A DNA stretch of 14,107 bases from a virus (Duplodnaviria; Heunggongvirae; Uroviricota; Caudoviricetes): the IMG/VR virus record IMGVR_UViG_2563366830_000016. One strand, 5' to 3'. Made by a program: the position numbers and the translations under genes. Below are positions 1-14,107 of this stretch, piece after piece (position 1 is the stretch's first letter; the number at the start of each line of letters is the position of its first letter). The notes below the pieces were generated by a model, which made no database searches, was not told the origin of the DNA, and saw only the letters and a program-made list of their open reading frames with translations.

Positions 1-1254
1 ATGCTGGAACAAATGGGCATTGCCGCGAAGCAAGCCTCGTATAAATTAGCGCAACTCTCCAGCCGCGAAAAAAATCGCGTGCTGGAAAAAATCGCCGATG
101 AACTGGAAGCACAAAGCGAAATCATCCTCAACGCTAACGCCCAGGATGTTGCTGACGCGCGAGCCAATGGCCTTAGCGAAGCGATGCTTGACCGTCTGGC
201 ACTGACGCCCGCACGGCTGAAAGGCATTGCCGACGATGTACGTCAGGTGTGCAACCTCGCCGATCCGGTGGGGCAGGTAATCGATGGCGGCGTACTGGAC
301 AGCGGCCTGCGTCTTGAGCGTCGTCGCGTACCGCTGGGGGTTATTGGCGTGATTTATGAAGCGCGCCCGAACGTGACGGTTGATGTCGCTTCGCTGTGCC
401 TGAAAACCGGTAATGCGGTGATCCTGCGCGGTGGCAAAGAAACGTGTCGCACTAACGCTGCAACGGTGGCGGTGATTCAGGACGCCCTGAAATCCTGCGG
501 CTTACCGGCGGGTGCCGTGCAGGCGATTGATAATCCTGACCGTGCGCTGGTCAGTGAAATGCTGCGTATGGATAAATACATCGACATGCTGATCCCGCGT
601 GGTGGCGCTGGTTTGCATAAACTGTGCCGTGAACAGTCGACAATCCCGGTGATCACAGGTGGTATAGGCGTATGCCATATTTACGTTGATGAAAGTGTAG
701 AGATCGCTGAAGCATTAAAAGTGATCGTCAACGCGAAAACTCAGCGTCCGAGCACATGTAATACGGTTGAAACGTTGCTGGTGAATAAAAACATCGCCGA
801 TAGCTTCCTGCCCGCATTAAGCAAACAAATGGCGGAAAGCGGCGTGACATTACACGCAGATGCAGCTGCACTGGCGCAGTTGCAGGCAGGCCCTGCGAAG
901 GTGGTTGCTGTTAAAGCCGAAGAGTATGACGATGAGTTTCTGTCATTAGATTTGAACGTCAAAATCGTCAGCGATCTTGACGATGCCATCGCCCATATTC
1001 GTGAACACGGCACACAACACTCCGATGCGATCCTGACCCGCGATATGCGCAACGCCCAGCGTTTTGTTAACGAAGTGGATTCGTCCGCTGTTTACGTTAA
1101 CGCCTCTACGCGTTTTACCGACGGCGGCCAGTTTGGTCTGGGTGCGGAAGTGGCGGTAAGCACACAAAAACTCCACGCGCGTGGCCCAATGGGGCTGGAA
1201 GCACTGACCACTTACAAGTGGATCGGCATTGGTGATTACACCATTCGTGCGTAA
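1..1254 (+). CDS. proA: Gamma-glutamyl phosphate reductase (glutamate-5-semialdehyde dehydrogenase), complete
   Basis: 417-aa ORF starting at base 1 with ATG; translation recognised as enterobacterial ProA over its whole length (ends ...[12 protein letters not shown]); lies directly upstream of tRNA-Thr, as at the E. coli proA-thrW locus. Confidence 0.95.
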
Positions 1255-1368
1255 ATAAAACCGGGTGATGCAAAAGTAGCCATTTGATTCACAAGGCCAT
1301 TGACGCATCGCCCGGTTAGTTTTAACCTTGCCCACCGTGATTCACGTTCGTGAACATGTCCTTTCAGG

Positions 1369-1444
1369 GCCGATATAGCTCAGTTGGTAGAGCAGCGCAT
1401 TCGTAATGCGAAGGTCGTAGGTTCGACTCCTATTATCGGCACCA
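1369..1444 (+). tRNA. thrW: tRNA-Thr (anticodon CGU)
   Basis: 76-nt sequence GCCGATATAGCTCAGTTGGTAGAGC...GGTTCGACTCCTATTATCGGCACCA with cloverleaf-compatible arms, anticodon loop TTCGTAA (CGT) and encoded 3' CCA; recognised as enterobacterial thrW, a known integration target for P4-like and P22-like elements. Confidence 0.95.
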
Positions 1445-1461
1445 TTCAAACATCTCCCCAA

Positions 1462-1545
1462 GTCTACTAAAGTCTTTCAAAACCCCTTATAATCCGCGTA
1501 TTAAAGCCCCGTTCGTCTTTTGACGTCTACTAAAGTCCCTCAAAA
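1462..1545 (+). repeat. Two 21-bp direct repeats (GTCTACTAAAGTCTTTCAAAA at 1462-1482; GTCTACTAAAGTCCCTCAAAA at 1525-1545) between the tRNA 3' end and int; candidate integrase arm-type sites in attL
   Basis: Read directly: 19/21 identical copies spaced about 63 bp apart, immediately downstream of the tRNA and upstream of the integrase start. Tyrosine integrases of tRNA-integrating elements commonly bind arm-type repeats in this position; the function is inferred. Confidence 0.4.
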
Positions 1546-1609
1546 TCTACGGTCAGATGGGGGTACTTATGGGGGTATTTGCTGTTCGGTTTAGTGGAGG
1601 TACCCCCAA

Positions 1610-2824
1610 GTGAAACTCAATGCCCGTCAAATAGACACAGCCAAGCCAAAAGAGAAGGCTTACAAGCTGGCCGATGGTGGCGGTTTGTATCTCTTGGTAA
1701 AACCTAATGGAGGTAAATACTGGCGACTTAAATATCGTGTAGATGGTAAAGAGAAGCTATTGGCACTAGGTGTGTATCCTGAGGTTACTCTAGCCGATGC
1801 TCGGGCAAAACGTGAAGATGCGAAAAGAGGTATCGCTGGTGGTATCGATCCGATGGAAGCGAAACGAGAGGAAAAGATTGCCCGGGAAACGCAGTTAAAC
1901 AACACCTTCAAAGATATTGCCCTTGAGTGGCACAGCAGCAAATTAAAAAAATGGTCTGCTGGTTATGCTTCAGACATCCTCGAAGCCTTCAACAAAGATG
2001 TGTTCCCTTACATTGGCAAAAAACCAATCGCCGAAATCAAACCACTTGAACTTCTGAATGTGCTGCGGCGCATCGAGGGGCGCGGTGCTACAGAAAAAGC
2101 CAAAAAAGTGAGGCAGCGGTGCGGGGAAGTTTTCCGCTATGCAATAGTCACTGGTCGCGCAGAGTATAACCCTGCACCAGACCTTACTAGCGCGATGCAA
2201 GGCCATGAATCTAATCATTACCCTTTCCTTACAGCTAAAGAATTACCTGATTTTTTCAAGGCATTGTCCAGTTACTCAGGAAGCGCATTGGTTGTTATGG
2301 CGGCTCGTCTACTGATTATCACCGGCTTGCGGACTGGCGAACTACGTGGCGCATTATGGGATGAAATTGATTTCAACAAGGCTATCTGGGAGATACCCGC
2401 TTCACGTATGAAAATGCGGCGGCCTCATATTGTGCCATTGTCTGATCAGGCTCTTTCGCTTATTGGGAAGATTAGAGAAATAACAGGCAATTACCCTCTT
2501 ATGTTTCCCGGGCGCAATGATCCAAGGAAAACAATGAGTGAGGCCAGCATAAACCAAGTGTTTAAGCGCATTGGCTACGCTGGACGTGTAACTGGTCATG
2601 GGTTCCGGCACACTATGAGTACGATTTTGCATGAGCAGGGCTATAACACCGCGTGGATAGAAACGCAGCTCGCTCACGTTGATAAGAACTCAATTCGTGG
2701 CACATACAACCATGCGCAATATCTGGATGGAAGGCGGGAGATGCTTCAATGGTATGCCGACTATATGGATTCTCTCGAGCATGGCGGAAATGTGGTGCAT
2801 ATGGTGTTTGAAAAACACGCATGA
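1610..2824 (+). CDS. Tyrosine-type site-specific integrase, P4-like family (GTG start)
   Basis: 404-aa ORF; N-terminus KLADGGGLYLLVKPNGGKYWRLKYRVDGKEKLLALGVYPEVTLADARAKR is the typical P4-type integrase arm-binding domain; C-terminal HGFRHT and catalytic-Tyr region (YNHAQY) consistent with tyrosine recombinases. GTG at 1610 is the only in-frame start; GGAGG lies 9 nt upstream. Adjacent to the tRNA. Confidence 0.9.
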   Translation: MKLNARQIDTAKPKEKAYKLADGGGLYLLVKPNGGKYWRLKYRVDGKEKLLALGVYPEVTLADARAKREDAKRGIAGGIDPMEAKREEKIARETQLNNTFKDIALEWHSSKLKKWSAGYASDILEAFNKDVFPYIGKKPIAEIKPLELLNVLRRIEGRGATEKAKKVRQRCGEVFRYAIVTGRAEYNPAPDLTSAMQGHESNHYPFLTAKELPDFFKALSSYSGSALVVMAARLLIITGLRTGELRGALWDEIDFNKAIWEIPASRMKMRRPHIVPLSDQALSLIGKIREITGNYPLMFPGRNDPRKTMSEASINQVFKRIGYAGRVTGHGFRHTMSTILHEQGYNTAWIETQLAHVDKNSIRGTYNHAQYLDGRREMLQWYADYMDSLEHGGNVVHMVFEKHA

Positions 2825-2967
2825 AACAACTGGACAAGTATACAGAGGTTTACTAAAGTATAGGGGAGTAGATTGATAAAAACTCACAGAGGATTGCTAT
2901 TTAACAGTTAGCCCTGGAGAAGGGCAATCGCTCTTTTATAAACGAAGGTGTATTGAGCCTTCTACGT

Positions 2968-3032
2968 CGCTGACAAAGCGGAATGTTCTTTAACAGGCTT
3001 TGGCGCTGACAAAGCGCAATTGTTCTTTAAAA
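2968..3032 (+). repeat. Tandem imperfect direct repeats of about 28 bp (CGCTGACAAAGCGGAATGTTCTTTAACA / GCGCTGACAAAGCGCAATTGTTCTTTAAAA) in the int-alpA intergenic region
   Basis: Read directly at 2968-2995 and 3003-3032. Position between int and the regulator gene suggests a protein-binding or regulatory site; function unknown. Confidence 0.4.
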
Positions 3033-3131
3033 CTACTGGATGTCACGCCTAATAGCGTGATCCTGCCGAAATGCAGGGTAGCTCTACCCTTGTGGAGCGA
3101 ACAAACCAAAACAATCTGACTATCTTTTATA

Positions 3132-3166
3132 AAAGACCGCAATATGTTTTTCATATTGTGGTCTTT
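3132..3166 (+). promoter_or_regulatory. Long inverted repeat (15-bp arms, 5-nt centre): AAAGACCGCAATATG-TTTTT-CATATTGTGGTCTTT, upstream of alpA
   Basis: Read directly; one mismatch in 15 bp; no U-tract follows on either strand, so operator-like or RNA-structure rather than an intrinsic terminator. A TTGACG motif follows at 3181-3186. Confidence 0.4.
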
Positions 3167-3252
3167 GGCGTATTCGACATTTGACGCAAATAAAACTCTC
3201 GCCATTCGTTGCAGGAGGGGGTTATTGCGTCATTAGTACAGGATATTAATAA

Positions 3253-3456
3253 ATGGCTAATTACAATTCATTAATTCGTCTCTCTGAAGTTCAAAGGCGA
3301 ACTGGTTATAGCAAAGCATGGATTTATCGTCTTATTAGTCAGGGGAGGTTCCCTAAACAGGTAAAAATTGGAAGTCGGGCAATTGCTTTTGTTGAGTCTG
3401 AAATAGATGAATGGATTGAGAAGTGTATATTAGAATCTAGAGACGAGGTGGCCTGA
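3253..3456 (+). CDS. alpA: AlpA-family phage/island transcriptional regulator (small HTH protein)
   Basis: 67-aa ORF with ...GYSKAWIYRLISQGRFPKQVKIGSRAIAFVESEIDEWIE..., the characteristic AlpA (prophage CP4-57 regulatory protein) pattern; AGGA about 10 nt upstream; same orientation as int, as in P4-like and PICI-type elements. Confidence 0.85.
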   Translation: MANYNSLIRLSEVQRRTGYSKAWIYRLISQGRFPKQVKIGSRAIAFVESEIDEWIEKCILESRDEVA

Positions 3457-3887
3457 TGGAAAAGAAAAACCGCCCATTACAGGCGGCTAATTCAGATATT
3501 CGTGTATCTGATGTTACGCCCCTTACAAAATCCCTTCAAGCACCAAAGCGCACACCGAAAAAGCATCGTGCCAGAGTCTATATGCTGCGTACTGGTATAG
3601 AGGGATGGACAGAAAATGACATTCTTCGCTACTGCCGTCTGTCTTCTGGTCGTAACTATGCAACAGAGTTAGAACGCCAGCTTGGAATCACTCTGGAGCG
3701 TATCGACGAAAAGAATCCTGATGGTATCGGAACACACCTTCGCTACCGTTTCTCCTGCCGTGGTGATGTTCTGAAAGTGATCACTCATATTAACCATCTT
3801 GCGAACATAAATGATCACAACGGACTTTCTCAGCAGGAAATTGCCGACATTCTGAAACTCTACCCGGACGCGTTTAACGCCGCCTAA
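3456..3887 (+). CDS. Hypothetical protein, 143 aa, basic N-terminus; translationally coupled to alpA
   Basis: ATG overlaps the alpA stop (TGATG). N-terminal Lys/Arg-rich segment (PKRTPKKHRARVY) suggests nucleic-acid binding. No family recognised. Confidence 0.6.
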   Translation: MEKKNRPLQAANSDIRVSDVTPLTKSLQAPKRTPKKHRARVYMLRTGIEGWTENDILRYCRLSSGRNYATELERQLGITLERIDEKNPDGIGTHLRYRFSCRGDVLKVITHINHLANINDHNGLSQQEIADILKLYPDAFNAA

Positions 3888-3899
3888 CGGAGACTGAAA

Positions 3900-4733
3900 A
3901 TGAACATCGAAAAAAGCAGATTAATTTCTGAGGCCGCCCCTCATCTGAACGCCTCTCTGGGCACAATTAACGGTAATGAATTTGCCGCAATTGTCCCGGT
4001 TATTCCAGGTCACATCGGTGGGCGTGAAACCAATATTGTTAGCGCAAAAGCGTTACACAAAGCGTTGGGCGTGGGAAAAGACTTCTCTACATGGATCACT
4101 GATCGCATCTCTGAATATGACTTCACCATTGGGCACGATTACTCAGTCCATAAAACAATTTCCCCAAATTTGGGGAAAAGCCCGAATGGCACGGCTTACA
4201 GCAAGATTAAGCAGTCTGGCAGACCCGGCAAAGACTATCTGTTAAGTGTCGGAATGGCGAAAGAGCTGGCAATGATCGAACGCAATGATCAGGGTCGCGC
4301 TATCCGTCGTTATTTCATCCAGTGCGAGGAAGAATTACAGCGTAGCGTGCCTGAAATCGCCGCCCGCTATCGTCGCCAGCTAAAAGCCCGTATCAGTGCC
4401 GCAAACAACTTTAAGCCAATGTGCGATGCGCTGAATATGGCCCGTGCCGAGCAGGGGAAAACGACGCAGCAACACCACTACACAAACGAGAGCAATATGA
4501 TTTCTCGTATCGTTCTTGGAGGGCTAACTGCTAAGCAGTGGGCGCGGATAAATGGCTATTCTGGCGAACCTCGCGACCATATGAACGCAGAACAGCTTGA
4601 GCACCTCTCATATCTCGAAAGCACCAATATCACGTTAATTGATATGGGCATGGAATATGAGCAGCGCAAAGGAGAACTCACCCGCCTGTCGCAACGCTGG
4701 CTCGCCAAGCGTCTGGAGGCGGTCCATGTTTAA
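3900..4733 (+). CDS. Putative phage regulatory/antirepressor-like protein (Rha/KilAC-like region)
   Basis: 277-aa ORF; GGAGA RBS 7 nt upstream; segment DYLLSVGMAKELAMIERNDQGRAIRRYFIQCEEEL resembles the conserved core of phage antirepressor (KilAC/Rha-type) domains. Family assignment is from memory of the motif, not a search. Confidence 0.55.
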   Translation: MNIEKSRLISEAAPHLNASLGTINGNEFAAIVPVIPGHIGGRETNIVSAKALHKALGVGKDFSTWITDRISEYDFTIGHDYSVHKTISPNLGKSPNGTAYSKIKQSGRPGKDYLLSVGMAKELAMIERNDQGRAIRRYFIQCEEELQRSVPEIAARYRRQLKARISAANNFKPMCDALNMARAEQGKTTQQHHYTNESNMISRIVLGGLTAKQWARINGYSGEPRDHMNAEQLEHLSYLESTNITLIDMGMEYEQRKGELTRLSQRWLAKRLEAVHV

Positions 4734-4908
4734 GCCGACAGGAACACCACAACCTCAAAAACGCTACAAAGATGCCCACGGAGCACTCGTTACTGTCGAA
4801 AGCGTGTCTCACAACCGAGTGACGTTTTATCGCGACGGGTATCAATCGCCATGCGTACAACCGCTGGCGCGCTTCATGAAGGAGTTCGCGGAGGTTAACA
4901 AATGCTAA
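4726..4908 (+). CDS. Hypothetical small protein (60 aa)
   Basis: ATG at 4726 preceded by GGAGG (8 nt spacing) and overlapping the stop of the upstream gene; in frame with track ORF 4639-4908. No family recognised. Confidence 0.5.
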   Translation: MFKPTGTPQPQKRYKDAHGALVTVESVSHNRVTFYRDGYQSPCVQPLARFMKEFAEVNKC

Positions 4909-5339
4909 CCGTCCAGAAGAAGATATTTTCACTGACTGCTATGTCGCAAAAATCCAGCAATATGACAGCAAAGTCTGGCATTAATACAGCAGATACAAGC
5001 AAAGCTTATCATTTTATGGTGGTAGGAGCGGATGCCTTAACTATGTCAGAAATTACGGTCGATGGTGTTAGCGTTGAGAAGGTCAGCGGCTGCGCCAGAG
5101 AATTTCTGGTCGTAGATGACCTGTTCTGCTCGCGTAGTGACTCCACAAAAATCTTCGTCCGCACGCGCGACGTTAACGAAATGAGCGCGATGTACTGTGC
5201 CTCTGGTTCTTCCAATAGTGAGTTTTCGGAGTCCATAAAAAAGAGCTTGCCGTTATGCGGCAACACGGTTTATGGTTATAAGGCACCTCATAAAACGGGT
5301 GCCGGGATTAGGACCCCGCAGGCAATCGAGGCGATACAT

Positions 5340-5360
5340 GACGCGCCAGCGTCTTTTTTT
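5340..5360 (+). terminator. Candidate intrinsic terminator / attenuator: GACGC-gcca-GCGTC hairpin followed by T7
   Basis: Read directly: 5-bp GC-rich stem, 4-nt loop, then TTTTTTT at 5354-5360. Short stem, so moderate-to-low confidence. Lies inside the gap with no convincing gene (4909-5524). Confidence 0.35.
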
Positions 5361-5524
5361 GTATCGGCGCACACGCACACCTTATCAATGGTGGGCTGTA
5401 TGGGGCTGACTTCGGTCAGGCTGGTTTCCTTGATTGCCAGTAGTCCTAACCCTGTACAGTCCACCGCCAGCGAGCTTAGGACCTCCGGCGGTGGCTATAA
5501 ACCATCAATCAAGGAGGCTGCCAC

Positions 5525-5719
5525 ATGCTGGCTACTACCCCTACCCAAAAACCGCAATTTATCTGGATTATCGCCGCAGTTCGCCGCGATTGCCCGACAA
5601 TTACCGCCAAAATTCATCATATTGCTGCCGAGTCTGAACGCGATGCTCGCCGTTCTCTGGTGCGCGATCACATCTGCTTTTTTGCTGGTCGTATCCGCAT
5701 GGAGGTGGCACATGATTAA
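5525..5719 (+). CDS. Hypothetical small protein (64 aa); first gene of the coupled operon leading to the primase
   Basis: Strong RBS AAGGAGG at 5511-5517, 7 nt before ATG; host-like codon usage (CTG, CGC, GCC, ATC); its stop overlaps the next gene's start. Confidence 0.7.
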   Translation: MLATTPTQKPQFIWIIAAVRRDCPTITAKIHHIAAESERDARRSLVRDHICFFAGRIRMEVAHD

Positions 5720-5930
5720 AACCTACGATGTGCATATGGATCCCCTCGAACGCACAAGCCAGATCATCACACTGACAGAAGTGATTAACGACATTCTGGT
5801 GAGCAACTCTCCCTCACGAGACGAAAGACTGAAGGCGTTACTCGCGATATTGGATCTCGCCGTTCGTGACGTTCATTTCCTGCTGGAAGGTGGACAAATG
5901 CCATGCAAAACGGGGGCAACCAATGAATAA
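5712..5930 (+). CDS. Hypothetical small protein (72 aa)
   Basis: ATG at 5712 with GGAGGTG 4-10 nt upstream; overlaps the upstream stop; forms the 3' part of track ORF 4902-5930. Confidence 0.6.
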   Translation: MIKTYDVHMDPLERTSQIITLTEVINDILVSNSPSRDERLKALLAILDLAVRDVHFLLEGGQMPCKTGATNE

Positions 5931-6117
5931 CTCAATTAATACCCCTCGCCTTACGTCCGCACTTCAATTAATCGAGCAAGCAGCGGCTGTCCTGGTTGCT
6001 GTCAGTCTTTCGGCTGAAGAAATGGACGCTGCTGATGTCGTGGATGCGATTAAAGCGTGCTCATCTTTGGTTAACGATGCCCGTGCCGAGCTGGTAATTC
6101 TTGGGGGTGAAAAATGA
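5923..6117 (+). CDS. Hypothetical small acidic protein (64 aa)
   Basis: ATG at 5923 (GGGGG 6 nt upstream), overlapping the upstream stop (ATGAATAA); acidic, predicted helical (SAEEMDAADVVDAIKA...). Confidence 0.6.
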   Translation: MNNSINTPRLTSALQLIEQAAAVLVAVSLSAEEMDAADVVDAIKACSSLVNDARAELVILGGEK

Positions 6118-6377
6118 ATATCAACTTAATTTATCGTCATCCGTGTGAGCTGGAAATTGAATCATTGCTGGGGCGCGAAGAGCCATATCCAGACACATTC
6201 ACTCCCGCAGATTGCGCGACTGAACGGCTTACCAGAGCGCGCACAGGTCTGGTTCATGTGATGAATGAGATTGTTCCCTCGGTGGGAGGGGAACAGGCGA
6301 CAGTAATCAATAGCTGGCTACAAAAAGTTACCTCCCTGATAGATATCGGTTTAATCGATGTGGAGAGTGCGAAATGA
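6114..6377 (+). CDS. Hypothetical small acidic protein (87 aa)
   Basis: ATGA start/stop overlap with upstream gene; GGGGGTG RBS. Confidence 0.65.
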   Translation: MNINLIYRHPCELEIESLLGREEPYPDTFTPADCATERLTRARTGLVHVMNEIVPSVGGEQATVINSWLQKVTSLIDIGLIDVESAK

Positions 6378-6595
6378 CCAACATCCAGCTCATTGAAGCG
6401 CAATGTCGCATCGAACAGGTTCAGACTGTTTTAGGGTTCTGGCTTGAAGGGGCCAGCCCCAGCAACAGAGACAAGTTAATGATTGGCGCGGTTATGTCAC
6501 TGCTCAATGGCGTACCAGAAGCTATTCAGGAAGCGGACGAATTGTTGGGCAAATATGAGTTACAGAATCATTCAGGCGAGGCGAAACATGAATAA
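6374..6595 (+). CDS. Hypothetical small protein (73 aa)
   Basis: ATGA overlap with upstream gene; GGAGAG RBS. Confidence 0.65.
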   Translation: MTNIQLIEAQCRIEQVQTVLGFWLEGASPSNRDKLMIGAVMSLLNGVPEAIQEADELLGKYELQNHSGEAKHE

Positions 6596-7190
6596 TTTCT
6601 TAACTTTCCATGCAGAAGCAACGCCTGACGGCGTAAACATCATGTACCGCAGCAACGATGGCATGACAGAACGCGTTGAGACCGTCTCATATATTGATGC
6701 CGTAAATCGTCTGGATGCCGGGGATTATGACGATAAACCAGATGAAGGCATGTTTATACATCTCGCTATTGCCAGTGGCGGCAACCAGGGATATTTCGAT
6801 TACACATCACAGCATCACGTGATTATGTGGCGCTGGCTGATAGCAACAGCATTCATCAATGAAATGAGAAAGGAAAACGGCACTGTCAGCATCATTGATG
6901 ATACTGGCAATCCTTCCGAAGTGGCTGTTTATTCCAACGGCATCGTCGCCATGCCGCTGTATCCAGTAGCAGAGCGCCTCGCTATGGCAAACAACATTGA
7001 GGGCGCGATGATAGAACGTTTTGGCATCGAGTCTGGCACAGAACGCGCCATCATTTTCTACAGAGCCATGATGGATGTGGAACAAGGAGCACTGACTCCA
7101 TTTGGTCGTGAAACGCTTGCTGAACTTCACAACAGCTTTATAGCTGAACTGAATGAAAACGGCATGCCAGCGGAACCAGTGACGCACTGA
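6588..7190 (+). CDS. Hypothetical protein (200 aa)
   Basis: ATG at 6588 overlaps upstream stop (ATGAATAA); GAGG RBS; internal part of track ORF 6483-7190. No family recognised. Confidence 0.7.
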   Translation: MNNFLTFHAEATPDGVNIMYRSNDGMTERVETVSYIDAVNRLDAGDYDDKPDEGMFIHLAIASGGNQGYFDYTSQHHVIMWRWLIATAFINEMRKENGTVSIIDDTGNPSEVAVYSNGIVAMPLYPVAERLAMANNIEGAMIERFGIESGTERAIIFYRAMMDVEQGALTPFGRETLAELHNSFIAELNENGMPAEPVTH

Positions 7191-7200
7191 GGATGGAGCC

Positions 7201-7542
7201 ATGATTACTAAAAATTTCCGACTGAATGCGCTGGCAAATAAGTATGCGTCAGCACTGTATAACCACATTACCTCCACCAGCGGCGGGGACTATTTCATGA
7301 TTGATGCGGACGGAGAGGCCGTCCGTGTGGAAATCGTCAATGGAGTAAAAGGCGTTCGCAGCCTGATCGATAGTTACGCACTGGCAGCCATGAAAGTGTT
7401 CTACCCGCAGTGGGAAACCGTGGGGATCGAGCTTCTTGATCGTTGCGTCACTAAGGACAGATTGACTGACGTCGGGCGTGAGATATGGCAAAGCATGGTT
7501 AATGACATGGGCGCAACTGTAGCGGGAGGTTCTCATGCGTGA
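7201..7542 (+). CDS. Hypothetical protein (113 aa)
   Basis: GAGGATGGAG RBS directly upstream; overlaps downstream gene start. Confidence 0.7.
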   Translation: MITKNFRLNALANKYASALYNHITSTSGGDYFMIDADGEAVRVEIVNGVKGVRSLIDSYALAAMKVFYPQWETVGIELLDRCVTKDRLTDVGREIWQSMVNDMGATVAGGSHA

Positions 7543-7906
7543 AAATGTAGAAATGGCGCTTAGCTCCGCAATCGGAGAGCAGGTGGCAAAGATTGCTGGT
7601 GCTGTGTGGATTCATAACCTTCATTCTACTGGTGAAGAGAAAATGGCAATTCAGACGCCAGAGGGACGCACCATTACTACATCTCTGAAGCCGTCAGATG
7701 TTTGTGATCTGATTTGCGCATTCATGTACCCAGCAATGAGGACTGTCCACGGCGATAAGTGGAAACTTGCGACAACCGCTGAATTTGATATGTGGCTAAA
7801 CAATGATGGCATGCTGACTGATTACGGAATAACCAAGTGGCAGATGCTAGTTAGCCATATCGCAAACGCTATAGACCACGTGGGGTACGGTGATGCGAAA
7901 CATTGA
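7535..7906 (+). CDS. Hypothetical protein (123 aa)
   Basis: GGGAGG RBS 6 nt upstream; 3' end overlaps the primase start by 14-17 nt. Confidence 0.7.
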   Translation: MRENVEMALSSAIGEQVAKIAGAVWIHNLHSTGEEKMAIQTPEGRTITTSLKPSDVCDLICAFMYPAMRTVHGDKWKLATTAEFDMWLNNDGMLTDYGITKWQMLVSHIANAIDHVGYGDAKH

Positions 7907-10649
7907 TCTTATCCGTCAGGTTATCAGTGCGTCTGAAAACAACTGGCCTCATGTGCTGGGCTGCCTGAACATAAATGTCCCTGACTCTCCGCGCCGTCAT
8001 GCTCCCTGCCCTGCATGTGGGGGCAAAGATCGATTCCGGTTCGATGACAACGGGCGCGGTAGCTTCATCTGTAATCAGTGCGGCGCTGGTGATGGGCTGG
8101 ATTTAATTAAACGCGTAAATAACTGCGACACAACAGAGGCGGCGCTTCTTGCCGCTGATGTTCTGGGTATTGATTACCGGACAACGGAAACACCAGAAGC
8201 CACCAGCCAGAAACGGGAACAACTGGAAACCGAGCGCCAGCGACGCGAACAGGAGCGCCTGAAAAGGGCAGAGAAGGACGAACAACAAAGACGGGATACG
8301 TTTTCCCGTCAGTTTGATGACATGCGCAGAAAGGCTGTAAACGGCAAATCTGATTATCTGGTTGCGAAAGGGGTAGGTGATTTTACATTCCCCGTGTTGC
8401 CCGATGGATCTCTGTTGCTGGCGCTGGTGGATAAATCCGGCGCAGTAACAGCAGCACAGACTATTACCTCACATGGTGAAAAAAGACTCCTGACAGGTTC
8501 AGCAAAGCGAGGGGCATATCACGCCATAAACGCACCAGAAACAACACAGAGCATCTTAATCGCAGAAGGGCTGGCAACGGCATTATCTGCCCATTTAATG
8601 CGTCCAGAGGCGCTGACAGTGGCGGCGATTGATGCCGGGAACCTGTTATATGTCGCCCAGGTACTGCGGGATAAATTTCCTTCAGCACAAATCATCATTG
8701 CTGCGGATAACGACCACAGCGAAGGAAGACAAAACACGGGGAGAATAGCAGCAGAAAAAGCAGCTTTATCTGTTTCTGGATGGGTGGCATTACCCCCGAC
8801 AGATCACAAAGCAGACTGGAATGATTACCACCAAAAACACGGCATTAAATGCGCCACAGAAGCGTTCAATAAGTCAATGTACCAACCACAGGGTAATGGC
8901 GTGAAACAGGAGCCACAGACCATTGAGGGAAGCGATTTTAAGGTTATGGATACCGATCCACTGAAACCAAGAATAGAAAGCCGCGAGGATGGTATTTATT
9001 GGGTATCTCCGAGAGCTGACAGCCAGAGTGGAGAAATCATCAATAACGAAAGCTGGTTATGTTCTCCGTTAAGCGTTATCGGTACTGGCAGAGACGATAA
9101 AGACCAGTATCTCATTCTTCGCTGGCTGTCGTTTGGTTCTGAAACGCCGACAACCGCTGCCATTCCACTGGCTGATATTGGTGAACGTGAAGGATGGCGC
9201 ACACTTAAAGCTGGTGGGGTAAATGTCACGACCAAAAGCAGCCTCAGAGCAATACTGGCAGACTGGCTACAACGCAGTGGCTCTCGTGAATTGTGGCGTG
9301 TTGCTCATGCCACTGGCTGGCAATGCGGAGCGTACATCATGCCTGATGGGGAAATCATCGGAACACCTGAAAATCCTGTGCTGTTCAGCGGGAGAAGCTC
9401 AGCCGCAGCCGGATATACCGTCTCAGGGAGCGCGAAAAGCTGGCGTGATAACGTGGCGCGTCTGGCCTTTGGTAACTATTCAATGATGACCGGGATCGGC
9501 GCAGCACTGGCAGCGCCATTGATTGGGCTGGTGGGCGCTGACGGGTTCGGCATTCATTTCTATGAGCAGTCGAGCGCAGGTAAGACCACCACGGCAAACG
9601 TGGCGAGCAGCTTATACGGCAACCCTGATTTACTGCGGCTGACGTGGTACGGAACCGCGCTGGGGCTGGCAAATGAGGCCGCCGCCCACAATGACGGACT
9701 AATGCCGCTTGATGAAGTTGGTCAGGGCGCTGATCCTGTCAGCGTTTCACAGTCTGCCTATGCGTTATTTAACGGTGTAGGGAAACTGCAAGGCGCTAAA
9801 GATGGTGGAAACCGGGATCTAAAACGCTGGCGTACAGTGGCAATCAGCACCGGAGAAATGGATTTAGAAACATTTATCGCTACTTCCGGGCGAAAAACCA
9901 AAGCCGGGCAACTGGTGCGACTGCTGAATATTCCGTTGAGTAAAGCAGTACGCTTTCACGATTACCAGAACGGAAAACAGCACGCAGACGCACTGAAAGA
10001 CGCTTACCAGCATCACCACGGCGCGTCCGGGCGTGAGTGGATTAAATGGCTGGCAGACCACCAGCAACAGGCTATTAAAACCGTTCGTGACTGCGAAAGC
10101 AGATGGAGAAGCCTGATCCCATCCGATTATGGTGAGCAGGTTCACCGTGTAGCCGCGCGATTTGCCATTCTGGAGGCCGCATTGTTGTTAGGCGAGGTTG
10201 TAACAGGCTGGGATGCTCAGACATGCCGTGATGCGATACAGCACAGCTATAACGCATGGTTGCGCGAGTTCGGCACAGGTAACAAAGAGCATCAGCAGAT
10301 TATTGAACAAACGGAGGCATTTCTTAATGCCTATGGGCTTAGCCGTTTTGCACCATTTCCATACAGCCCGGCAGATTTGCCCATCAAAGATTTAGCCGGA
10401 TACCGTCAGCGTGGAGAACATGACGAAAGCCCAATGATTTTCTACACATTCCCGGCCACATTTGAAAAGGAGATCGCATGTGGTTTCAACGCAAAACAGT
10501 TTGCTGAAGTGTTGAAAAAAGCCGGGATGCTAACCCCACCAAACAGCGGTCGTGGATACCAAAGAAAATCACCACGTATTCAGGGACGACAAATAAACGT
10601 TTATGTACTCAATTACCAGCCAGGAGATTATAACTCATCTGAAGAATGA
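7890..10649 (+). CDS. Satellite/phage-type DNA primase-helicase (primase Zn-ribbon + TOPRIM + P-loop NTPase, P4 alpha-like)
   Basis: 919-aa ORF. N-terminal zinc-ribbon CPACGG...FICNQCG typical of primase-helicase Zn-binding domains; charged linker (EQLETERQRREQERLKRAEKDEQQRR); TOPRIM-like acidic motif (IAADNDHSEGRQ); Walker A (SSAGKTTT). Track start is GTG 7890; ATG at 7893 is the alternative. Confidence 0.9.
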   Translation: MMRNIDLIRQVISASENNWPHVLGCLNINVPDSPRRHAPCPACGGKDRFRFDDNGRGSFICNQCGAGDGLDLIKRVNNCDTTEAALLAADVLGIDYRTTETPEATSQKREQLETERQRREQERLKRAEKDEQQRRDTFSRQFDDMRRKAVNGKSDYLVAKGVGDFTFPVLPDGSLLLALVDKSGAVTAAQTITSHGEKRLLTGSAKRGAYHAINAPETTQSILIAEGLATALSAHLMRPEALTVAAIDAGNLLYVAQVLRDKFPSAQIIIAADNDHSEGRQNTGRIAAEKAALSVSGWVALPPTDHKADWNDYHQKHGIKCATEAFNKSMYQPQGNGVKQEPQTIEGSDFKVMDTDPLKPRIESREDGIYWVSPRADSQSGEIINNESWLCSPLSVIGTGRDDKDQYLILRWLSFGSETPTTAAIPLADIGEREGWRTLKAGGVNVTTKSSLRAILADWLQRSGSRELWRVAHATGWQCGAYIMPDGEIIGTPENPVLFSGRSSAAAGYTVSGSAKSWRDNVARLAFGNYSMMTGIGAALAAPLIGLVGADGFGIHFYEQSSAGKTTTANVASSLYGNPDLLRLTWYGTALGLANEAAAHNDGLMPLDEVGQGADPVSVSQSAYALFNGVGKLQGAKDGGNRDLKRWRTVAISTGEMDLETFIATSGRKTKAGQLVRLLNIPLSKAVRFHDYQNGKQHADALKDAYQHHHGASGREWIKWLADHQQQAIKTVRDCESRWRSLIPSDYGEQVHRVAARFAILEAALLLGEVVTGWDAQTCRDAIQHSYNAWLREFGTGNKEHQQIIEQTEAFLNAYGLSRFAPFPYSPADLPIKDLAGYRQRGEHDESPMIFYTFPATFEKEIACGFNAKQFAEVLKKAGMLTPPNSGRGYQRKSPRIQGRQINVYVLNYQPGDYNSSEE

Positions 10650-10672
10650 GCTTCTTCATGTGCGTAGAAAAG

Positions 10673-10787
10673 GTGTTGGTTCAGTTGGTTTAGTTGGTTC
10701 AATTTGTAAAGAGTATTGTTTTATAAGGATTTTATTCTTTTTATTGAACCAACACTGAACCAACAACACGGTATTTTGAACCAACAC
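10673..10787. repeat. Iteron-type origin candidate: 3 direct repeats GTTGGTT(C/T)A (10673-10701), AT-rich spacer, 3 inverted copies TGAACCAAC(A)AC (10745-10787)
   Basis: Read directly. Clustered 9-11 bp repeats in opposing orientation around an AT-rich core, immediately downstream of the primase-helicase gene, is the classic arrangement of a satellite/phage replication origin. Confidence 0.65.
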
Positions 10788-10893
10788 AATGTGACTGAAT
10801 TGATGCGCACAACACCTGGCTGGCATCAGAGAGTGTTTTACGAGACTTTCGTAAAATCCTGTGTACAAGGGCGTGACGTTTTTGAAAGTGAGC

Positions 10894-10912
10894 ACTACGA
10901 AATTTTCGTAGT
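10894..10912. promoter_or_regulatory. 19-bp palindrome ACTACGAAA-T-TTTCGTAGT (operator-like), with an additional TTTCGTA half-site about 45 bp upstream
   Basis: Read directly; 9-bp arms, perfect. Related half-site within ACTTTCGTAAAAT at 10845-10857. Function inferred. Confidence 0.35.
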
Positions 10913-11105
10913 TCAGAAAACAGCCTCTGAGAAGTTGTTATGCCTGTTCAGCAAACCATCCGCATAGCTGATCGCGAATCAAATTACCAATGGAGCCAGA
11001 AGCAAGGGCAGAACTGAAAAGCGCCTGCCGTGAAGAGTAATGCGACACCATAAATATAGTTTTTAGAGTCCATAAAAAACCTGTCAAAACCTGACACACA
11101 GAACG

Positions 11106-11138
11106 ATGCCACCAGCTACTGAGCGGTGGCATTTTTTT
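11106..11138 (+). terminator. Rho-independent terminator (8-bp stem ATGCCACC/GGTGGCAT, 11-nt loop, T7 tract)
   Basis: Read directly: perfect 8-bp GC-rich stem followed by TTTTTTT at 11132-11138. Confidence 0.65.
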
Positions 11139-11171
11139 GTGCTATTTGTTTCATATTTTGCAATTACGATG

Positions 11172-11200
11172 ATGAATATTGCGATTTGTGAAACTATAAT
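11172..11200 (+). promoter_or_regulatory. Candidate sigma70 promoter: consensus -10 TATAAT (11195-11200) with weak -35 ATGAAT at 17-bp spacing
   Basis: Perfect TATAAT hexamer 34 nt upstream of the ATG at 11234 and just downstream of the terminator; the -35 is weak, so low confidence. Confidence 0.35.
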
Positions 11201-11233
11201 AACTGTTGTTTTATACAGTTCTAAGGGGGCGTT

Positions 11234-11395
11234 ATGGCTATTTCAGTAAAGCCGGTATTGATAAGTGAGAAGCAAATGGAAGCGATAAAGAAAATTCAGG
11301 AAGAGCAGCGTAAAAAATCAGGAATTGGAGTAGCGCCAACTCTGCATGAAATTGCACGAGGGTTAATAGATAAGGCGCTGGCAGGCTGTATGTGA
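11234..11395 (+). CDS. Small ORF (53 aa), ribbon-helix-helix-like predicted fold; putative DNA-binding regulator or antitoxin-like protein
   Basis: Below the 60-aa track cutoff; found by reading. AAGGGGG RBS 4-5 nt upstream. MAISVKPVLISEKQMEAIKKIQEEQRKKSGIGVAPTLHEIARGLIDKALAGCM shows a beta-strand/helix/helix pattern typical of Arc/MetJ/CopG-type proteins. Fold assignment is inference. Confidence 0.45.
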   Translation: MAISVKPVLISEKQMEAIKKIQEEQRKKSGIGVAPTLHEIARGLIDKALAGCM

Positions 11396-11411
11396 AAATG
11401 GATGGCATCGC

Positions 11412-11873
11412 ATGGAACTAAAATTTATTGATAACCCTGTGCGATTACAGGCCTTTCTTAACGAGCCAGGCAATACCGAAAATATTGTTGAGCCGGGGCA
11501 CACGTACTACATCAAGCCTGATGCGGTATATCTCGGCATCTACGAAGGATTAGTGCTGGCTGGCGTTCATGAAGTGCGTAACTTCTGGCATAGCGTTGTT
11601 GAATGCCATGCGGTGTACGACCCCGGATTCCGTGGTGAATATGCACTGCAAGGACATCGATTATTCTGCAAATGGCTTCTCGAAAACTCACCATTCCTTA
11701 ACAGCATCACTATGGTTCCTGACACCACGAAATACGGACGGGCAATTATCCGTTTGCTTGGCGCTACCCGTGTTGGTCACCTTGATGATGCTTATATCAG
11801 ATGTGGTAAACCCGTCGGCGTAACGCTTTATCAGTTAACTCGGCAACAATATAAGGAATTCAGCGAATGTTAA
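11412..11873 (+). CDS. Hypothetical protein (153 aa), possibly P22 gp14-like; co-transcribed with downstream ejection-protein-like genes
   Basis: 153-aa ORF; its stop overlaps the next gene's start (ATGTTAA). Position and size match the gene preceding gp7 in P22-like clusters; the homology is recalled, not verified. Confidence 0.6.
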   Translation: MELKFIDNPVRLQAFLNEPGNTENIVEPGHTYYIKPDAVYLGIYEGLVLAGVHEVRNFWHSVVECHAVYDPGFRGEYALQGHRLFCKWLLENSPFLNSITMVPDTTKYGRAIIRLLGATRVGHLDDAYIRCGKPVGVTLYQLTRQQYKEFSEC

Positions 11874-12544
11874 TTACCCATATAGCTCATAAACATCTCA
11901 ATCGTGCCGTATACGAAAAAGGCGGTGATGGTGGTGCCTCTAAAGCTCAGGCGAAGGCCCAGCAGCAGGCAATTGATTTGCAGCGCGAGCAGTGGAATAC
12001 GGTGATGAATAATCTCAAGCCGTATGCAGAAGTCGGATTGCCTGCTTTACAACAACTACAAGGACTGATGACTCTGGAAGGGCAGAATAAAGCCGCGAAT
12101 GATTTCTTTGGTTCTGGTTTATATAAAACACAGGCAGATCAGGCCCGTTATCAGAACCTTGTCTCAGCAGAAACTACCGGGGGGCTTGGCTCAACAGCTA
12201 CCAGTAACCAGTTATCTTCCATTGCGCCCATGCTTTATAACAATTGGCTTAGTGGGCAAATGCAAAATTATGGAAACCTGCTAAATGTCGGGATGAATGC
12301 GGCATCAGGGCAGGCAACGGCAGGGCAAAACTACGCCAATAATACCGGACAACTCTTGCAGGGGCTTGGCGCTATTCGTGCAGGTCAGGCGCAGCAGCCA
12401 TCCAGTCTTGCGCGTGGTATTGGTGGGGCAGCATCAGGCGCTTTAGCGGGTGCGCAACTTGGTTCCGTTGTTCCTGGAATAGGAACTGCGGCCGGCGCTA
12501 TTGGTGGTGGGCTTATTGGTCTTGTTGGGGGGCTTGGATTCTAA
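11867..12544 (+). CDS. P22 gp7-like DNA-transfer (ejection) protein candidate, Gln/Gly/Ala-rich with glycine-zipper hydrophobic C-terminus
   Basis: 225-aa ORF, AAGGA RBS; low-complexity Q/G/A-rich composition and C-terminal GIGTAAGAIGGGLIGLVGGLGF segment. Size and composition match podovirus ejection protein gp7 (about 229 aa). Assignment by composition and synteny only. Confidence 0.55.
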   Translation: MLITHIAHKHLNRAVYEKGGDGGASKAQAKAQQQAIDLQREQWNTVMNNLKPYAEVGLPALQQLQGLMTLEGQNKAANDFFGSGLYKTQADQARYQNLVSAETTGGLGSTATSNQLSSIAPMLYNNWLSGQMQNYGNLLNVGMNAASGQATAGQNYANNTGQLLQGLGAIRAGQAQQPSSLARGIGGAASGALAGAQLGSVVPGIGTAAGAIGGGLIGLVGGLGF

Positions 12545-13863
12545 TGGCGACATGGCAACTTGGCGGGCTGCCTAGCATGGCACCGCAAAATGATAATGCT
12601 CCTCGTTCTTCCGTTCCTCAGCCTGTGCAGTATCAGCAGCAGCCAAACGTAGGTTTAATGGCGCTACAGGGGCTAAGAGGCGTTGCTGAGATTAATCAGC
12701 AGGCGCAAATTTCCCAGCAGCTAAAAGAATATCAGGCACGGTTGGGTAGTGCGGTAGCTAATAATGATCGTGTTGGCGTGCAGAAGTTAATGGCCCAGTA
12801 TCCCCAGTTTATGGCTGATTCTCAAAAACAGATGGGATTCATTGATGCTGAGCAAAATCGGCAGACCGCTGACGCTGCCATGAATCTGCGTCTTGCGTCA
12901 CAAACTGGAGATCCACTGACCATGCAGAAGGCCATTCAGCAGGCAAATCCAGTATTACAGCGATTTGGTCTTCCTGCTGAAGAGGTTTATCAGTCTTGGC
13001 AGAATGACCCACAGGAATTCAACAGAATCACTGACCTCATCCACCTCCATGCTGATCCAAATAGTTACTTTAGTGTTCAAGAGAAGCAGCAAGGGCAGAG
13101 TATTGCACAGCAGAACGCAGATACATCTGCATATAATGCTCAGGTTAATGCGGAGCAGGGTAATCGGCGGCTCGATATGGAGCAGTTCAAAGTCCTATCC
13201 GATAACCAACTACGCACGAGAGAAATGGTTCTGAAAGCACGACTTGGACGTGCTCAAAATGACATCGAGAGAGACAAGCTCAATGCTGAACTGAGCAAGG
13301 TACAGCAGGCGAAAGTGGAGAAGATGAACGATAAAATTAATACTGTTGCAGGTAATATCGACTCCTTGAACTCTGCGCTTGAAGTGGGTCATGAACTGGC
13401 GGGAATTGTAGGGAAACATCCTTCGGCCGTTACCCGTTCGCAGAACTATAACCCCCTGACGCTGGGGTTTGGATTCCTCCCTGATGTAGCAGAAGACACA
13501 CGAAGCCTACGCGCCAAAGCTGATGAATACAACCTAAAGGTTATTCTGCCTAGCCTAAAAGGTACTTTTGGCTCTAACCCAACCGAAGGGGAAAGGGCTG
13601 CCCTTATGCAATCTCAAAATGGCATTAAGTCAGCAACCAGCAATGAGGCATTTTTGCGAGAGTTGAATAAAGCGCAGGACGTAATTATTCGAATGCAGAA
13701 ACGACAGATTGCCGGGCTCGGTATTCCTGTAACCAAATCTAAGGACGAAGAAACTGATACCAAAATGCTGTTGCAGGATCCTTCACTGGTTAAGGATTAT
13801 GTGACCGCACATGGCTATCTGCCGGAAAGTTACTATCAGGCAAAACTTAAGGGATGGCAATGA
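12544..13863 (+). CDS. P22 gp20-like DNA-transfer (ejection) protein candidate, Gln-rich coiled-coil protein
   Basis: 439-aa ORF starting at TAATG overlap with the upstream gene; Q-rich, helical/coiled-coil character; size and position match gp20 (about 470 aa) of P22-like phages. Assignment is inference. Confidence 0.55.
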   Translation: MATWQLGGLPSMAPQNDNAPRSSVPQPVQYQQQPNVGLMALQGLRGVAEINQQAQISQQLKEYQARLGSAVANNDRVGVQKLMAQYPQFMADSQKQMGFIDAEQNRQTADAAMNLRLASQTGDPLTMQKAIQQANPVLQRFGLPAEEVYQSWQNDPQEFNRITDLIHLHADPNSYFSVQEKQQGQSIAQQNADTSAYNAQVNAEQGNRRLDMEQFKVLSDNQLRTREMVLKARLGRAQNDIERDKLNAELSKVQQAKVEKMNDKINTVAGNIDSLNSALEVGHELAGIVGKHPSAVTRSQNYNPLTLGFGFLPDVAEDTRSLRAKADEYNLKVILPSLKGTFGSNPTEGERAALMQSQNGIKSATSNEAFLRELNKAQDVIIRMQKRQIAGLGIPVTKSKDEETDTKMLLQDPSLVKDYVTAHGYLPESYYQAKLKGWQ

Positions 13864-13888
13864 TGGCACAACTGACAGAAAAACAGAA
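13863..13888 (+). pseudogene. 5' stub (about 9 codons, MAQLTEKQN...) of the next gene in the cluster (gp16-like position), truncated by IS insertion
   Basis: ATG at 13863 overlaps the upstream stop (TGATG), continuing the coupling pattern; the reading frame runs into the IS terminal repeat beginning at 13889. Confidence 0.35.
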
Positions 13889-14107
13889 TGAACCGCCCCG
13901 GGAATCCTGGAGACTAAACTTCCTGAGAAAGAGGTAAACAGGATGACTAAAAATACTCGTTTTTCCCCTGAAGTCCGTCAACGGGCAGTCCGTATGGTTC
14001 TGGAAAGTCAGGGCGAATATGACTCACAATGGGCGACAATTTGTTCCATTGCTCCAAAGATTGGCTGTACGCCGGAGACTCTGCGTGTCTGGGTTCGCCA
14101 GCATGAG
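13889..14107 (+). mobile_element. IS3-family insertion sequence, IS629/IS1203-like, left end (partial; continues beyond window)
   Basis: Terminal sequence TGAACCGCCCCGGGAATCCTGGAGACTAAAC followed by orfA encoding [55 protein letters not shown], recognised as the IS629-type OrfA N-terminus (HTH transposase subunit). Identity recalled, not searched. Confidence 0.8.
13943..14107 (+). CDS. IS3-family transposase OrfA (N-terminal 55 codons; truncated by window end)
   Basis: ATG at 13943 with GAGG RBS; translation matches IS629-like OrfA N-terminus; ORF open to the last base of the window. Confidence 0.85.

Follow-up and report, generated by a model that had tools for sequence, protein, structure and literature searches.

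EcCIMP1 is a 19,963-bp phage-inducible chromosomal island (PICI) of Escherichia coli MP1, inserted at a tRNA-Thr gene between proA and yagU (Pick, Stadel & Raivio 2025, ISME J, PMC11773190; GenBank OR778291). Its excision and circularization take place only when the P22-like helper phage vB_EcoP_Kapi1 is present and need its own int and alpA genes, the alpA promoter being induced by the helper, and Kapi1 transduces the island at low frequency (PMC11773190). EcCIMP1 leaves the helper titre unchanged and adds to superinfection immunity against Kapi1; a role in packaging was proposed by Pick et al. (PMC11773190). All phage-inducible chromosomal island-like elements (PLEs) of Vibrio cholerae code for an alternative tape-measure protein (TMP), tail assembly chaperone and hub, which become part of chimeric tails, and “no other satellites” were then known to encode a TMP (bioRxiv 10.1101/2025.01.29.635557); one more case comes from a mycobacterial preprint (EPIP). 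Here we describe a 14,107-nt stretch of DNA (IMG/VR record IMGVR_UViG_2563366830_000016; “the window” refers to this whole stretch) that originates from an E. coli chromosome and reaches from proA across thrW into an element inserted there, of which it includes the leftmost 12.4 kb. The element is a PICI-like phage satellite of the EcCIMP1 type, already published and represented here by a close variant, not a new satellite. It carries a P22-type ejection-protein cassette and a predicted antisense-RNA immunity switch, neither of which is mentioned in the published description of EcCIMP1.

An EcCIMP1-type satellite at thrW

Aligned by blastn with the EcCIMP1 locus of MP1 (OR778291; CP139039 3565708-3585670), the window is 97.8% identical over positions 1-5362 and 98.2% identical over 5419-13888. 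The gene order from int to the ejection genes is the same, the AlpA protein is 100% identical in amino acid sequence to the EcCIMP1 alpA product, and both elements occupy thrW between proA and yagU. Given this identity to an island whose dependence on a helper has been demonstrated (PMC11773190), the original prediction, made from the window sequence, assigned the element to the right class. The P4-family integrase beside the tRNA, the alpA gene in the same orientation, the primase-helicase with Zn-ribbon, TOPRIM and P-loop, and the iteron origin on which that assignment was based are all found where it had placed them (ARAGORN, Pfam, and iteron count).

The extent of the element has to be revised. 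It had been taken to span positions 1445-10790 (~9.3 kb), but 10790 marks only the end of the iteron block. E. coli N25 provides the best uninterrupted match to the window, with 99.98% identity over positions 1-13888, and because the att core TCCTATTATC of thrW recurs in that copy 19,550 bp downstream of attL, the element as read from N25 is ~19.5 kb long and runs past 10790 to the window end and beyond. A repeat outside the window had indeed been anticipated. In MP1 the second copy of TCCTATTATC lies 19,963 bp downstream, which reproduces the published length of EcCIMP1. At least 80% of the window is present in 129 of 5,426 complete E. coli genomes. The window element adds one more copy of the EcCIMP1 type together with a corrected map. 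In the right arm, which lies outside the window, the N25/window type has a ~0.9-kb segment that differs from that of EcCIMP1, and it is without a homologue of alpA_1, the helper Xis surrogate of EcCIMP1. Two other small genes on the minus strand stand in place of alpA_1 in N25 (N25-extract coordinates 35981-36725).

Neither the window nor the complete elements of N25 and MP1 contain genes for capsid, tail, terminase, or lysis proteins, although ejection-protein genes are present. No window protein matched sid, psu, or delta, and searches with Pfam and PHROG found none of the packaging-redirection families (TerS, Rpp, Ppi, and capsid-morphogenesis proteins), in agreement with Pick et al. (PMC11773190). 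The earlier observation that the element is without recognizable capsid, terminase, sid, psu, or delta genes is upheld, but the end then given to the element hides genes for virion (ejection) proteins, which begin just past it at 11412, within the window. Elements of this kind had also been described as hotspots for helper-phage interference and antiviral cargo. PADLOC detected no known defence system among the open reading frames (ORFs) beyond a weak PDC-S22 match on the AntA C-terminus, consistent with PMC11773190. As to pac-like DNA shared with the helper, the island is homologous to Kapi1 at the nucleotide level only over 596 bp of gp14-gp7 and in a 69-bp match within gp7, and it has no terminase gene.

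Like the Gram-negative PICIs EcCICFT073 and EcCIEDL933 (Fillol-Salom et al. 2018), the element carries int and then alpA in one orientation, has its primase/replication gene before an iteron origin, and encodes a PerC-like protein and no capsid or lysis functions; its life cycle, as shown for EcCIMP1, is helper-induced like theirs. Unlike these PICIs, it is longer (19.5 kb), lacks rpp, terS, and capsid-morphogenesis genes, and has RNA immunity of the C4/icd type as well as genes for ejection proteins; Pick et al. also place it phylogenetically distant from them (PMC11773190). An EcCIMP1-type, PICI-like satellite at thrW that parasitizes P22-like (Lederbergvirus) helpers, with the mechanism proposed below, is very probably the correct explanation of the locus.

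A satellite-specific lineage of P22-type ejection genes

The four genes that follow the 53-aa ORF (table 1), annotated until now as “hypothetical” or “DNA transfer”, are collinear with Kapi1_055-058, to which their products are 84, 57, 26, and 24% identical, respectively. In order and in families (DUF2824, P22_gp7, Inj_translocase, and gp16 of phrog_770) they match the 14-7-20-16 block of P22. Unlike the P22 block, the cassette is not accompanied by coat, portal, or tail genes and occurs by itself in a satellite, and the satellite gp16 has an extra N-terminal SLT domain that also occurs in phages Dewey and Huey. The window ends in this last gene, which is interrupted by an insertion sequence (IS) of the IS3 family. 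The intact gp16-SLT gene of N25 (extract 31860-34580) encodes 906 aa with the Pfam SLT lytic transglycosylase domain and a match to phrog_770 (E = 1.8e-120). The window copy may be impaired by the IS. Other strains, including M15 and DLI.6n, have IS3, IS4, or IS66 insertions in the gp16-SLT gene or the island. M15 is the best hit over the whole window, but its IS elements are at other positions, which places the strain of the window outside the complete genomes searched.

Comparison of the cassette with that of a Leclercia adecarboxylata satellite gave dN/dS values of 0.055-0.084 for all four genes at dS > 1, the gp20 homologue being 89% identical between the two with a dN/dS of 0.065. Because the cassettes of these satellites are 83-89% identical, whereas their primases share 68% and their integrases only 27% identity, exchange of the ejection module between satellite backbones is indicated. 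No protein in 50,697 phage records exceeds 28% identity to gp20 or 52% identity to gp16-SLT. The gp20 homologues inspected at 49-84% identity (those of a Logan contig, of Pectobacterium carotovorum, and of two additional contigs) were all in satellites sharing one architecture, namely int, AlpA, the 143-aa protein, AntA, “Ash”, a DUF927 primase, the 53-aa protein, and the cassette. With the Leclercia copy included, the homologues inspected in Pectobacterium, Leclercia, and metagenomic contigs span 49-99% identity and all belong to such satellites. Homologues at 46% (Serratia) and 38% (Providencia) were in complete P22-like prophages. Because of the low dN/dS, the limited gp20 identity to phages, and the graded series of gp20 homologues, found in satellites at 49-84% identity, we conclude from the sequence comparisons that the genes form a complete P22-type ejectosome cassette of a satellite-specific lineage, maintained by purifying selection and not a relic. 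Its minimal conserved set consists of gp20 and SLT-gp16, with gp7 and gp14 sometimes absent. In a related satellite from a Logan assembly (extract 5854-8896), gp14 is missing, and genes for SSB and a HipA_2-domain protein separate the primase gene from the ejection cassette.

About 50 bp upstream of the 53-aa gene are conserved in relatives whatever the cargo that follows, whether ejection proteins, a TMP, lytic tail proteins, or a hub. This stretch contains a dyad abutting a TATAAT hexamer, predicted from the alignment to be the promoter/operator of the 53-aa gene and the cargo. The AlphaFold2 model of the 53-aa protein (pLDDT 84.5) consists of an extended N-terminus and two helices, and its best Foldseek match is the ribbon-helix-helix domain of PutA at a nonsignificant E value of 0.79; the protein is possibly of the ribbon-helix-helix type.

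A possible slot for DNA-delivery proteins in relatives

We surveyed the family by a primase scan restricted to one genome per species, which gave ~65 Enterobacterales loci with primases 52-81% identical to that of the window, and tabulated their genes by tblastn. The conserved backbone comprises int, alpA, the genes for the 143-aa protein, AntA, and DUF4222, icd, the genes for the 200-aa and 113-aa proteins, the primase gene, the 53-aa gene, and the genes for PerC and other right-arm proteins. Directly after the 53-aa ORF, 13 relatives encode a 108-aa protein (phrog_19131), at the position expected for a tail assembly chaperone, followed by a solitary TMP of 584-1136 aa (Pfam TMP_3, 3e-57; PHROGs 1107, 1538, 2854, and 2276). 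The same slot holds an SLT-bearing lytic tail or internal virion protein in 10 relatives and a baseplate hub in one. No further tail genes were found beside these TMP, lytic, and hub proteins in the relatives' loci, and loci without the 53-aa gene are also without such virion cargo. The survey included an enterobacterial-type satellite with a primase 79% identical to that of the window in CACSKA010000004.1, labelled Chryseobacterium sp., which is probably a mislabelled or contaminated assembly.

It is quite possible, though short of probable, that EcCIMP1-family satellites have a dedicated slot for DNA-delivery proteins matched to the helper morphotype, which would give chimeric particles that inject through a conduit of the satellite's own. 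The slot contents would then follow the helper: podovirus helpers would be paired with gp7/gp20/gp16-SLT, with or without gp14, and tailed helpers with a TMP, a hub, or lytic tail proteins. One possible purpose of such a conduit is entry into helper lysogens despite superinfection exclusion. Like the V. cholerae PLEs, the window element encodes diverged homologues of helper DNA-delivery proteins (24-84% identical to those of Kapi1). It differs from them in having an unrelated backbone and host, a podovirus helper, and capsid-borne ejection proteins in place of tail-core proteins. A literature search for tape-measure or ejection proteins in PICI-like enterobacterial satellites returned no report beyond the PLEs and the mycobacterial EPIP. 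The slot cargo in relatives from many genera extends the “chimeric virion” idea of the PLEs to the Enterobacterales and to podoviruses, in the tractable Kapi1/EcCIMP1 system. If the interpretation is true, the strategy shown for the TMPs of the PLEs would have its first example with capsid-borne proteins (an ejectosome) and its first in the Enterobacterales.

A predicted antisense-RNA immunity switch

Between alpA and the primase gene, where the original prediction counted about 11 genes of unknown function, lie the genes for AntA and DUF4222, isrK-like and C4 RNAs, an Icd-like gene, and six small ORFs. The annotation of a 342-aa “Ash family” protein in this region is doubtful. The Phage_ASH match (nt 5271-5559) coincides with the isrK-like and C4 RNA genes, and because the frame is not kept relative to the 98%-identical MP1, being broken by indels of 1 and 32 nt, and PGAP calls the MP1 ORF a pseudogene, the 342-aa ORF is probably not one real protein. 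The Ash protein annotation, and possibly the Pfam family too, may consist largely of translated RNA genes.

One loop of the C4 RNA, CCUUGAUUG, has its complement in CAAUCAAGG (5507-5515), a stretch overlapping the Shine-Dalgarno sequence of icd, and, one G-U pair included, also matches CAAUCGAGG in the isrK-like RNA; for the GUCCUAA segment of C4, matching UUAGGAC copies lie on the upstream and the downstream side. The C4 loop and the icd Shine-Dalgarno region are complementary over 9-15 nt, and loop and target co-vary among relatives in at least seven specificity combinations. All six a/b sites (~5300-5520) are swapped coordinately between the window and EcCIMP1, within flanks that are 98% identical. 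On the basis of this pattern the two elements are likely heteroimmune variants, and interchangeable isrK/C4/icd specificities would explain heteroimmunity of near-identical satellites. The Icd-like protein is 41% identical to the P4 “cI ORF” region, and a 39-nt stretch of the isrK-like RNA region is 90% identical to the P4 immunity region. By sequence and by analogy, we predict that isrK-like/C4/icd constitutes a P1/P4-type immunity switch with a specificity other than that of EcCIMP1.

The module resembles ImmI of phages P1 and P7 (c4, icd, ant) in having a C4-family RNA, an adjacent downstream icd-like ORF whose ribosome-binding site is complementary to the C4 loop, target sites duplicated upstream and downstream, and likely heteroimmune variants that differ in the recognition bases. 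Unlike in ImmI, the Ant homologue (3900-4733) is encoded upstream of C4 and none follows icd; the genes after icd are instead small ORFs and the primase gene, an arrangement in which, as in P4, replication would be under the control of the switch. Of the proteins encoded by these small ORFs, those of 200 and 113 aa are conserved in relatives. A possible 72-aa ORF (5712-5930), which shares 8 nt with the end of icd, stop codon included, and in this strain has the frame of the long Ash ORF, may be translationally coupled to icd.

The conserved slot for predicted DNA-delivery proteins and the probably heteroimmune C4 cassettes are unpublished, and both can be tested in the existing experimental system.

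Replication genes and origin

The primase gene is followed directly by an origin candidate in which GTTGGTTYA occurs three times on either side of an AT-rich spacer, in opposite orientations. The window contains six matches to this motif against 0.28 expected, a number that none of 200 shuffled sequences reached. A second, inverted cluster of six GTTGGTTYA copies is found 8.2 kb downstream beside perC, outside the window, in N25 (extract 36840-36960) and MP1. By analogy with P4, this cluster may be a crr-like element; it may also be the trace of a module insertion.

Proposed life cycle

Part of the cycle that we propose has been shown for EcCIMP1: the helper induces alpA, excision at TCCTATTATC in thrW is brought about by AlpA and the P4-type integrase, and helper particles transfer the circle at low frequency. 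While the element is quiescent, a C4-type RNA from the leader transcript that also yields the isrK-like RNA would pair with two sites, including the icd ribosome-binding site, and so keep the operon of icd, the small ORFs, and the primase gene shut, following the logic of P1 ImmI and P4 cI. The primase-helicase would fire replication at the GTTGGTTYA iterons, and the inverted cluster 8 kb away may act like P4 crr. With an element about half the size of the 39.4-kb helper genome, a P22-type headful would hold about two copies. The separately controlled module of dyad operator/promoter, 53-aa gene, and gp14/gp7/gp20/gp16-SLT most likely supplies satellite-specific ejection proteins, and we infer that these would be built into the helper capsids that carry the satellite, as the podovirus counterpart of the alternative TMPs of the PLEs.

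Alternative explanations

Several features of the locus call to mind other kinds of element. The order int...gp14-gp7-gp20-gp16 fits the map of a P22 prophage, thrW-type sites are used by P22-like phages, and the Kapi1 integrase is 50% identical to that of the window, all of which would suit a decaying P22-like prophage at thrW whose ejection genes are relics and whose int and primase are its own. This is most improbable, and a prophage remnant was rejected on the att bounds, the purifying selection on the ejection genes, and their satellite-only lineage: att repeats 19.5-20 kb apart bound an element that excises as a unit (excision being shown for EcCIMP1), the gene lineage occurs with different integrases and primases, and no capsid, portal, terminase, or lysis remnants are present. 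Of the genes of an intact P22-like prophage sought between the att sites, including those for terminase, portal, scaffold, coat, tail-accessory proteins, and tailspike, only the gp14/7/20/16 homologues were found. Nor do int and primase belong to a prophage whose structural genes lie just outside the window, which the original prediction had allowed for, as attR is 19.55 kb from attL in N25 and no intact prophage occurs beyond the window. Similarities to P4 include an integrase 42% identical over its full length, an AlpA/Vis-type regulator, an alpha-like Zn-ribbon/Toprim primase domain (33% identity over the N-terminal 355 aa), C4/cI-type RNA immunity inside the leader of the replication operon with the 39-nt match to the P4 immunity region, and two separated iteron clusters, as in P4 ori and crr. 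A P4-like satellite dependent on a P2-type helper is nevertheless very improbable, and P4-like membership was rejected since neither a homologue of any of sid, delta, psu, and epsilon nor, in the full N25 copy, a P2/P4 cos site was found; moreover, its helicase domain is DUF927 and not the P4 alpha C-terminus, and the demonstrated helper of the 98%-identical EcCIMP1 is a P22-like podovirus (PMC11773190), not a P2-like phage. Scoring of the De Sousa type returned an uncertain “type C” PICI, which, with the low transduction frequency, would agree with a helper-independent integrative island (a mobilizable element or a defence island) with no more in common with satellites than int, alpA, and primase. 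Such an island is highly improbable given that EcCIMP1 excision, circularization, and alpA induction are strictly helper dependent (PMC11773190) and that the element has no relaxase or conjugation genes.

For the ejection cassette, incorporation into virions has a serious rival in a role in defence or exclusion. Under this explanation the cassette is defence or interference cargo, its divergent gp20 and gp16 homologues, expressed in the cell, poisoning or occupying the DNA-entry route of superinfecting P22-like phages or spoiling helper virions. EcCIMP1 strengthens superinfection immunity to Kapi1 without a known defence system (PMC11773190), the cassette has its own promoter/operator apart from the replication operon, and assembly-interference defences are common in satellites. 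We nonetheless consider this role unlikely: gp14 is kept at 84% identity to that of the helper, the N-terminal part of gp7 is likewise retained, and some relatives have the full four-gene set in phage order, a pattern that suggests a functional set for assembly; EcCIMP1 does not affect helper titres (PMC11773190), and the TMP of the analogous PLE satellites is a virion component. Incorporation of satellite ejection proteins into helper particles, and the mechanism as a whole, also face evidence that points the other way. No sequence feature indicates entry of the ejection proteins into virions, Pick et al. observed only low transduction and an unchanged helper titre and proposed a packaging role (PMC11773190), and the P22-type cassette occurs in only two of the ~65 species loci, which makes it cargo and not core. 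The copy in the window is interrupted by an IS, with the right half of the element outside the window, the folds of the 53-aa and 143-aa proteins have no significant assignment, and the C4 mechanism is drawn from complementarity and analogy, with Ant upstream of C4 here and downstream in P1.

Other features of the element

Table 1. Features of the 14,107-nt window, with positions numbered from its first nucleotide
Feature	Position	Strand	Evidence or remark
proA	1-1254		E. coli chromosomal gene left of thrW
thrW, tRNA-Thr(CGU)	1369-1444	+	ARAGORN, Rfam
attL, att core TCCTATTATC	1428-1437		Within thrW 3' end; matches published EcCIMP1 att
Candidate integrase arm-type sites, CTACTAAAGT (two copies)	1464-1473, 1527-1536	+	Pattern search; putative function
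P4-type tyrosine integrase	1610-2824	+	Pfam Arm-DNA-bind_3, Phage_int_M, Phage_integrase
Third candidate arm-type copy, TACTAAAGT	2851-2859		Pattern search
Direct repeat CGCTGACAAAGCG (two copies, 36 bp apart)	2968-2980, 3004-3016	+	int-alpA intergenic; sequence and terminator-scan hits
AlpA regulator/excision factor	3253-3456	+	Pfam Phage_AlpA, E 7e-20
Conserved 143-aa protein	3456-3887	+	Abuts alpA translationally; no Pfam or PHROG match
AntA/Ant-type antirepressor homologue	3900-4733	+	Pfam AntA 1e-21; PHROG anti-repressor
DUF4222 protein	4726-4908	+	Pfam 6e-25
Annotated 342-aa “Ash family” ORF (probably not one protein)	4902-5930	+	Pfam Phage_ASH match, aa 124-219
isrK-like leader RNA with own terminator	5283-5359	+	Rfam RF01394, 63 bits (threshold 50)
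Upstream target copies a1 / b1 in isrK-like RNA	5306-5313 / 5321-5329		Complementarity
C4-type antisense RNA	5384-5471	+	Rfam RF01695, 80.2 bits (gathering score 45)
C4 recognition sequences b' CCUUGAUUG / a' GUCCUAA	5427-5435 / 5444-5450		
Downstream targets a2 CTTAGGAC / b2 CAATCAAGG	5475-5482 / 5507-5515	+	
Icd-like protein	5525-5719	+	NCBIfam NF033153, 70 bits (cut-off 25); Icd-like annotation in MP1
Six small overlapping ORFs (64, 87, 73, 200, 113, 123 aa)	5923-7906	+	Lead into primase gene
Primase-helicase, 918 aa	7893-10649	+	Pfam Zn_Ribbon_Prim, Toprim_3, DUF927 with P-loop
Origin candidate: GTTGGTTYA (three copies), 43-bp AT-rich spacer, TGAACCAAC (three copies, inverted)	10675-10785		Directly after primase stop
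Intrinsic terminator closing alpA-primase side	11105-11139	+	
Dyad TTTCAT-N5-GCAAT...ATTGC-N5-GTGAAA abutting TATAAT (predicted promoter/operator)	11150-11200	+	Alignment of 14 relatives with differing cargo
Conserved 53-aa protein	11234-11395	+	Always immediately upstream of virion-protein cargo
P22 gp14 homologue (DUF2824, head morphogenesis)	11412-11873	+	Pfam 1.5e-61; phrog_651; homologue of Kapi1_055
P22 gp7-type ejection protein	11867-12544	+	Pfam P22_gp7 2e-72; homologue of Kapi1_056
P22 gp20-type ejection protein (Inj_translocase)	12544-13863	+	Pfam 4e-22; PHROG 917/2534; homologue of Kapi1_057
gp16-type ejection protein with N-terminal SLT, first 9-10 codons	13860-13888	+	Cut by IS
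IS3-family element, left end (TGAACCGCCCCGGG..., then orfA start)	13889-14107	+	No insertion here in N25 or MP1

All island genes after thrW are on the plus strand. The candidate arm-type sites belong to (C)TACTAAAGT repeats that occur on both sides of int, and the CGCTGACAAAGCG repeats upstream of alpA may be binding sites for AlpA or for an inducer encoded by the helper. The 143-aa protein is found in most relatives and in 611 clusters across the Enterobacterales, and a sequence search of the PDB gave no match to it. Its AlphaFold2 model (pLDDT 71) has a disordered N-terminus and only weak, nonsignificant fold matches of MarR/RTP type (E at least 0.12), so that a winged-helix-like domain is possible.

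A sigma-70 scan found fewer promoter-like sites than in shuffled sequences. Between the origin and the terminator, ~300 bp (10800-11100) contain no annotated gene. A short minus-strand ORF is present at 10938-11132, and a palindromic pair, TACGAGACTTTCGTA and TACGAAATTTTCGTA, lies at 10839-10853 and 10896-10910.

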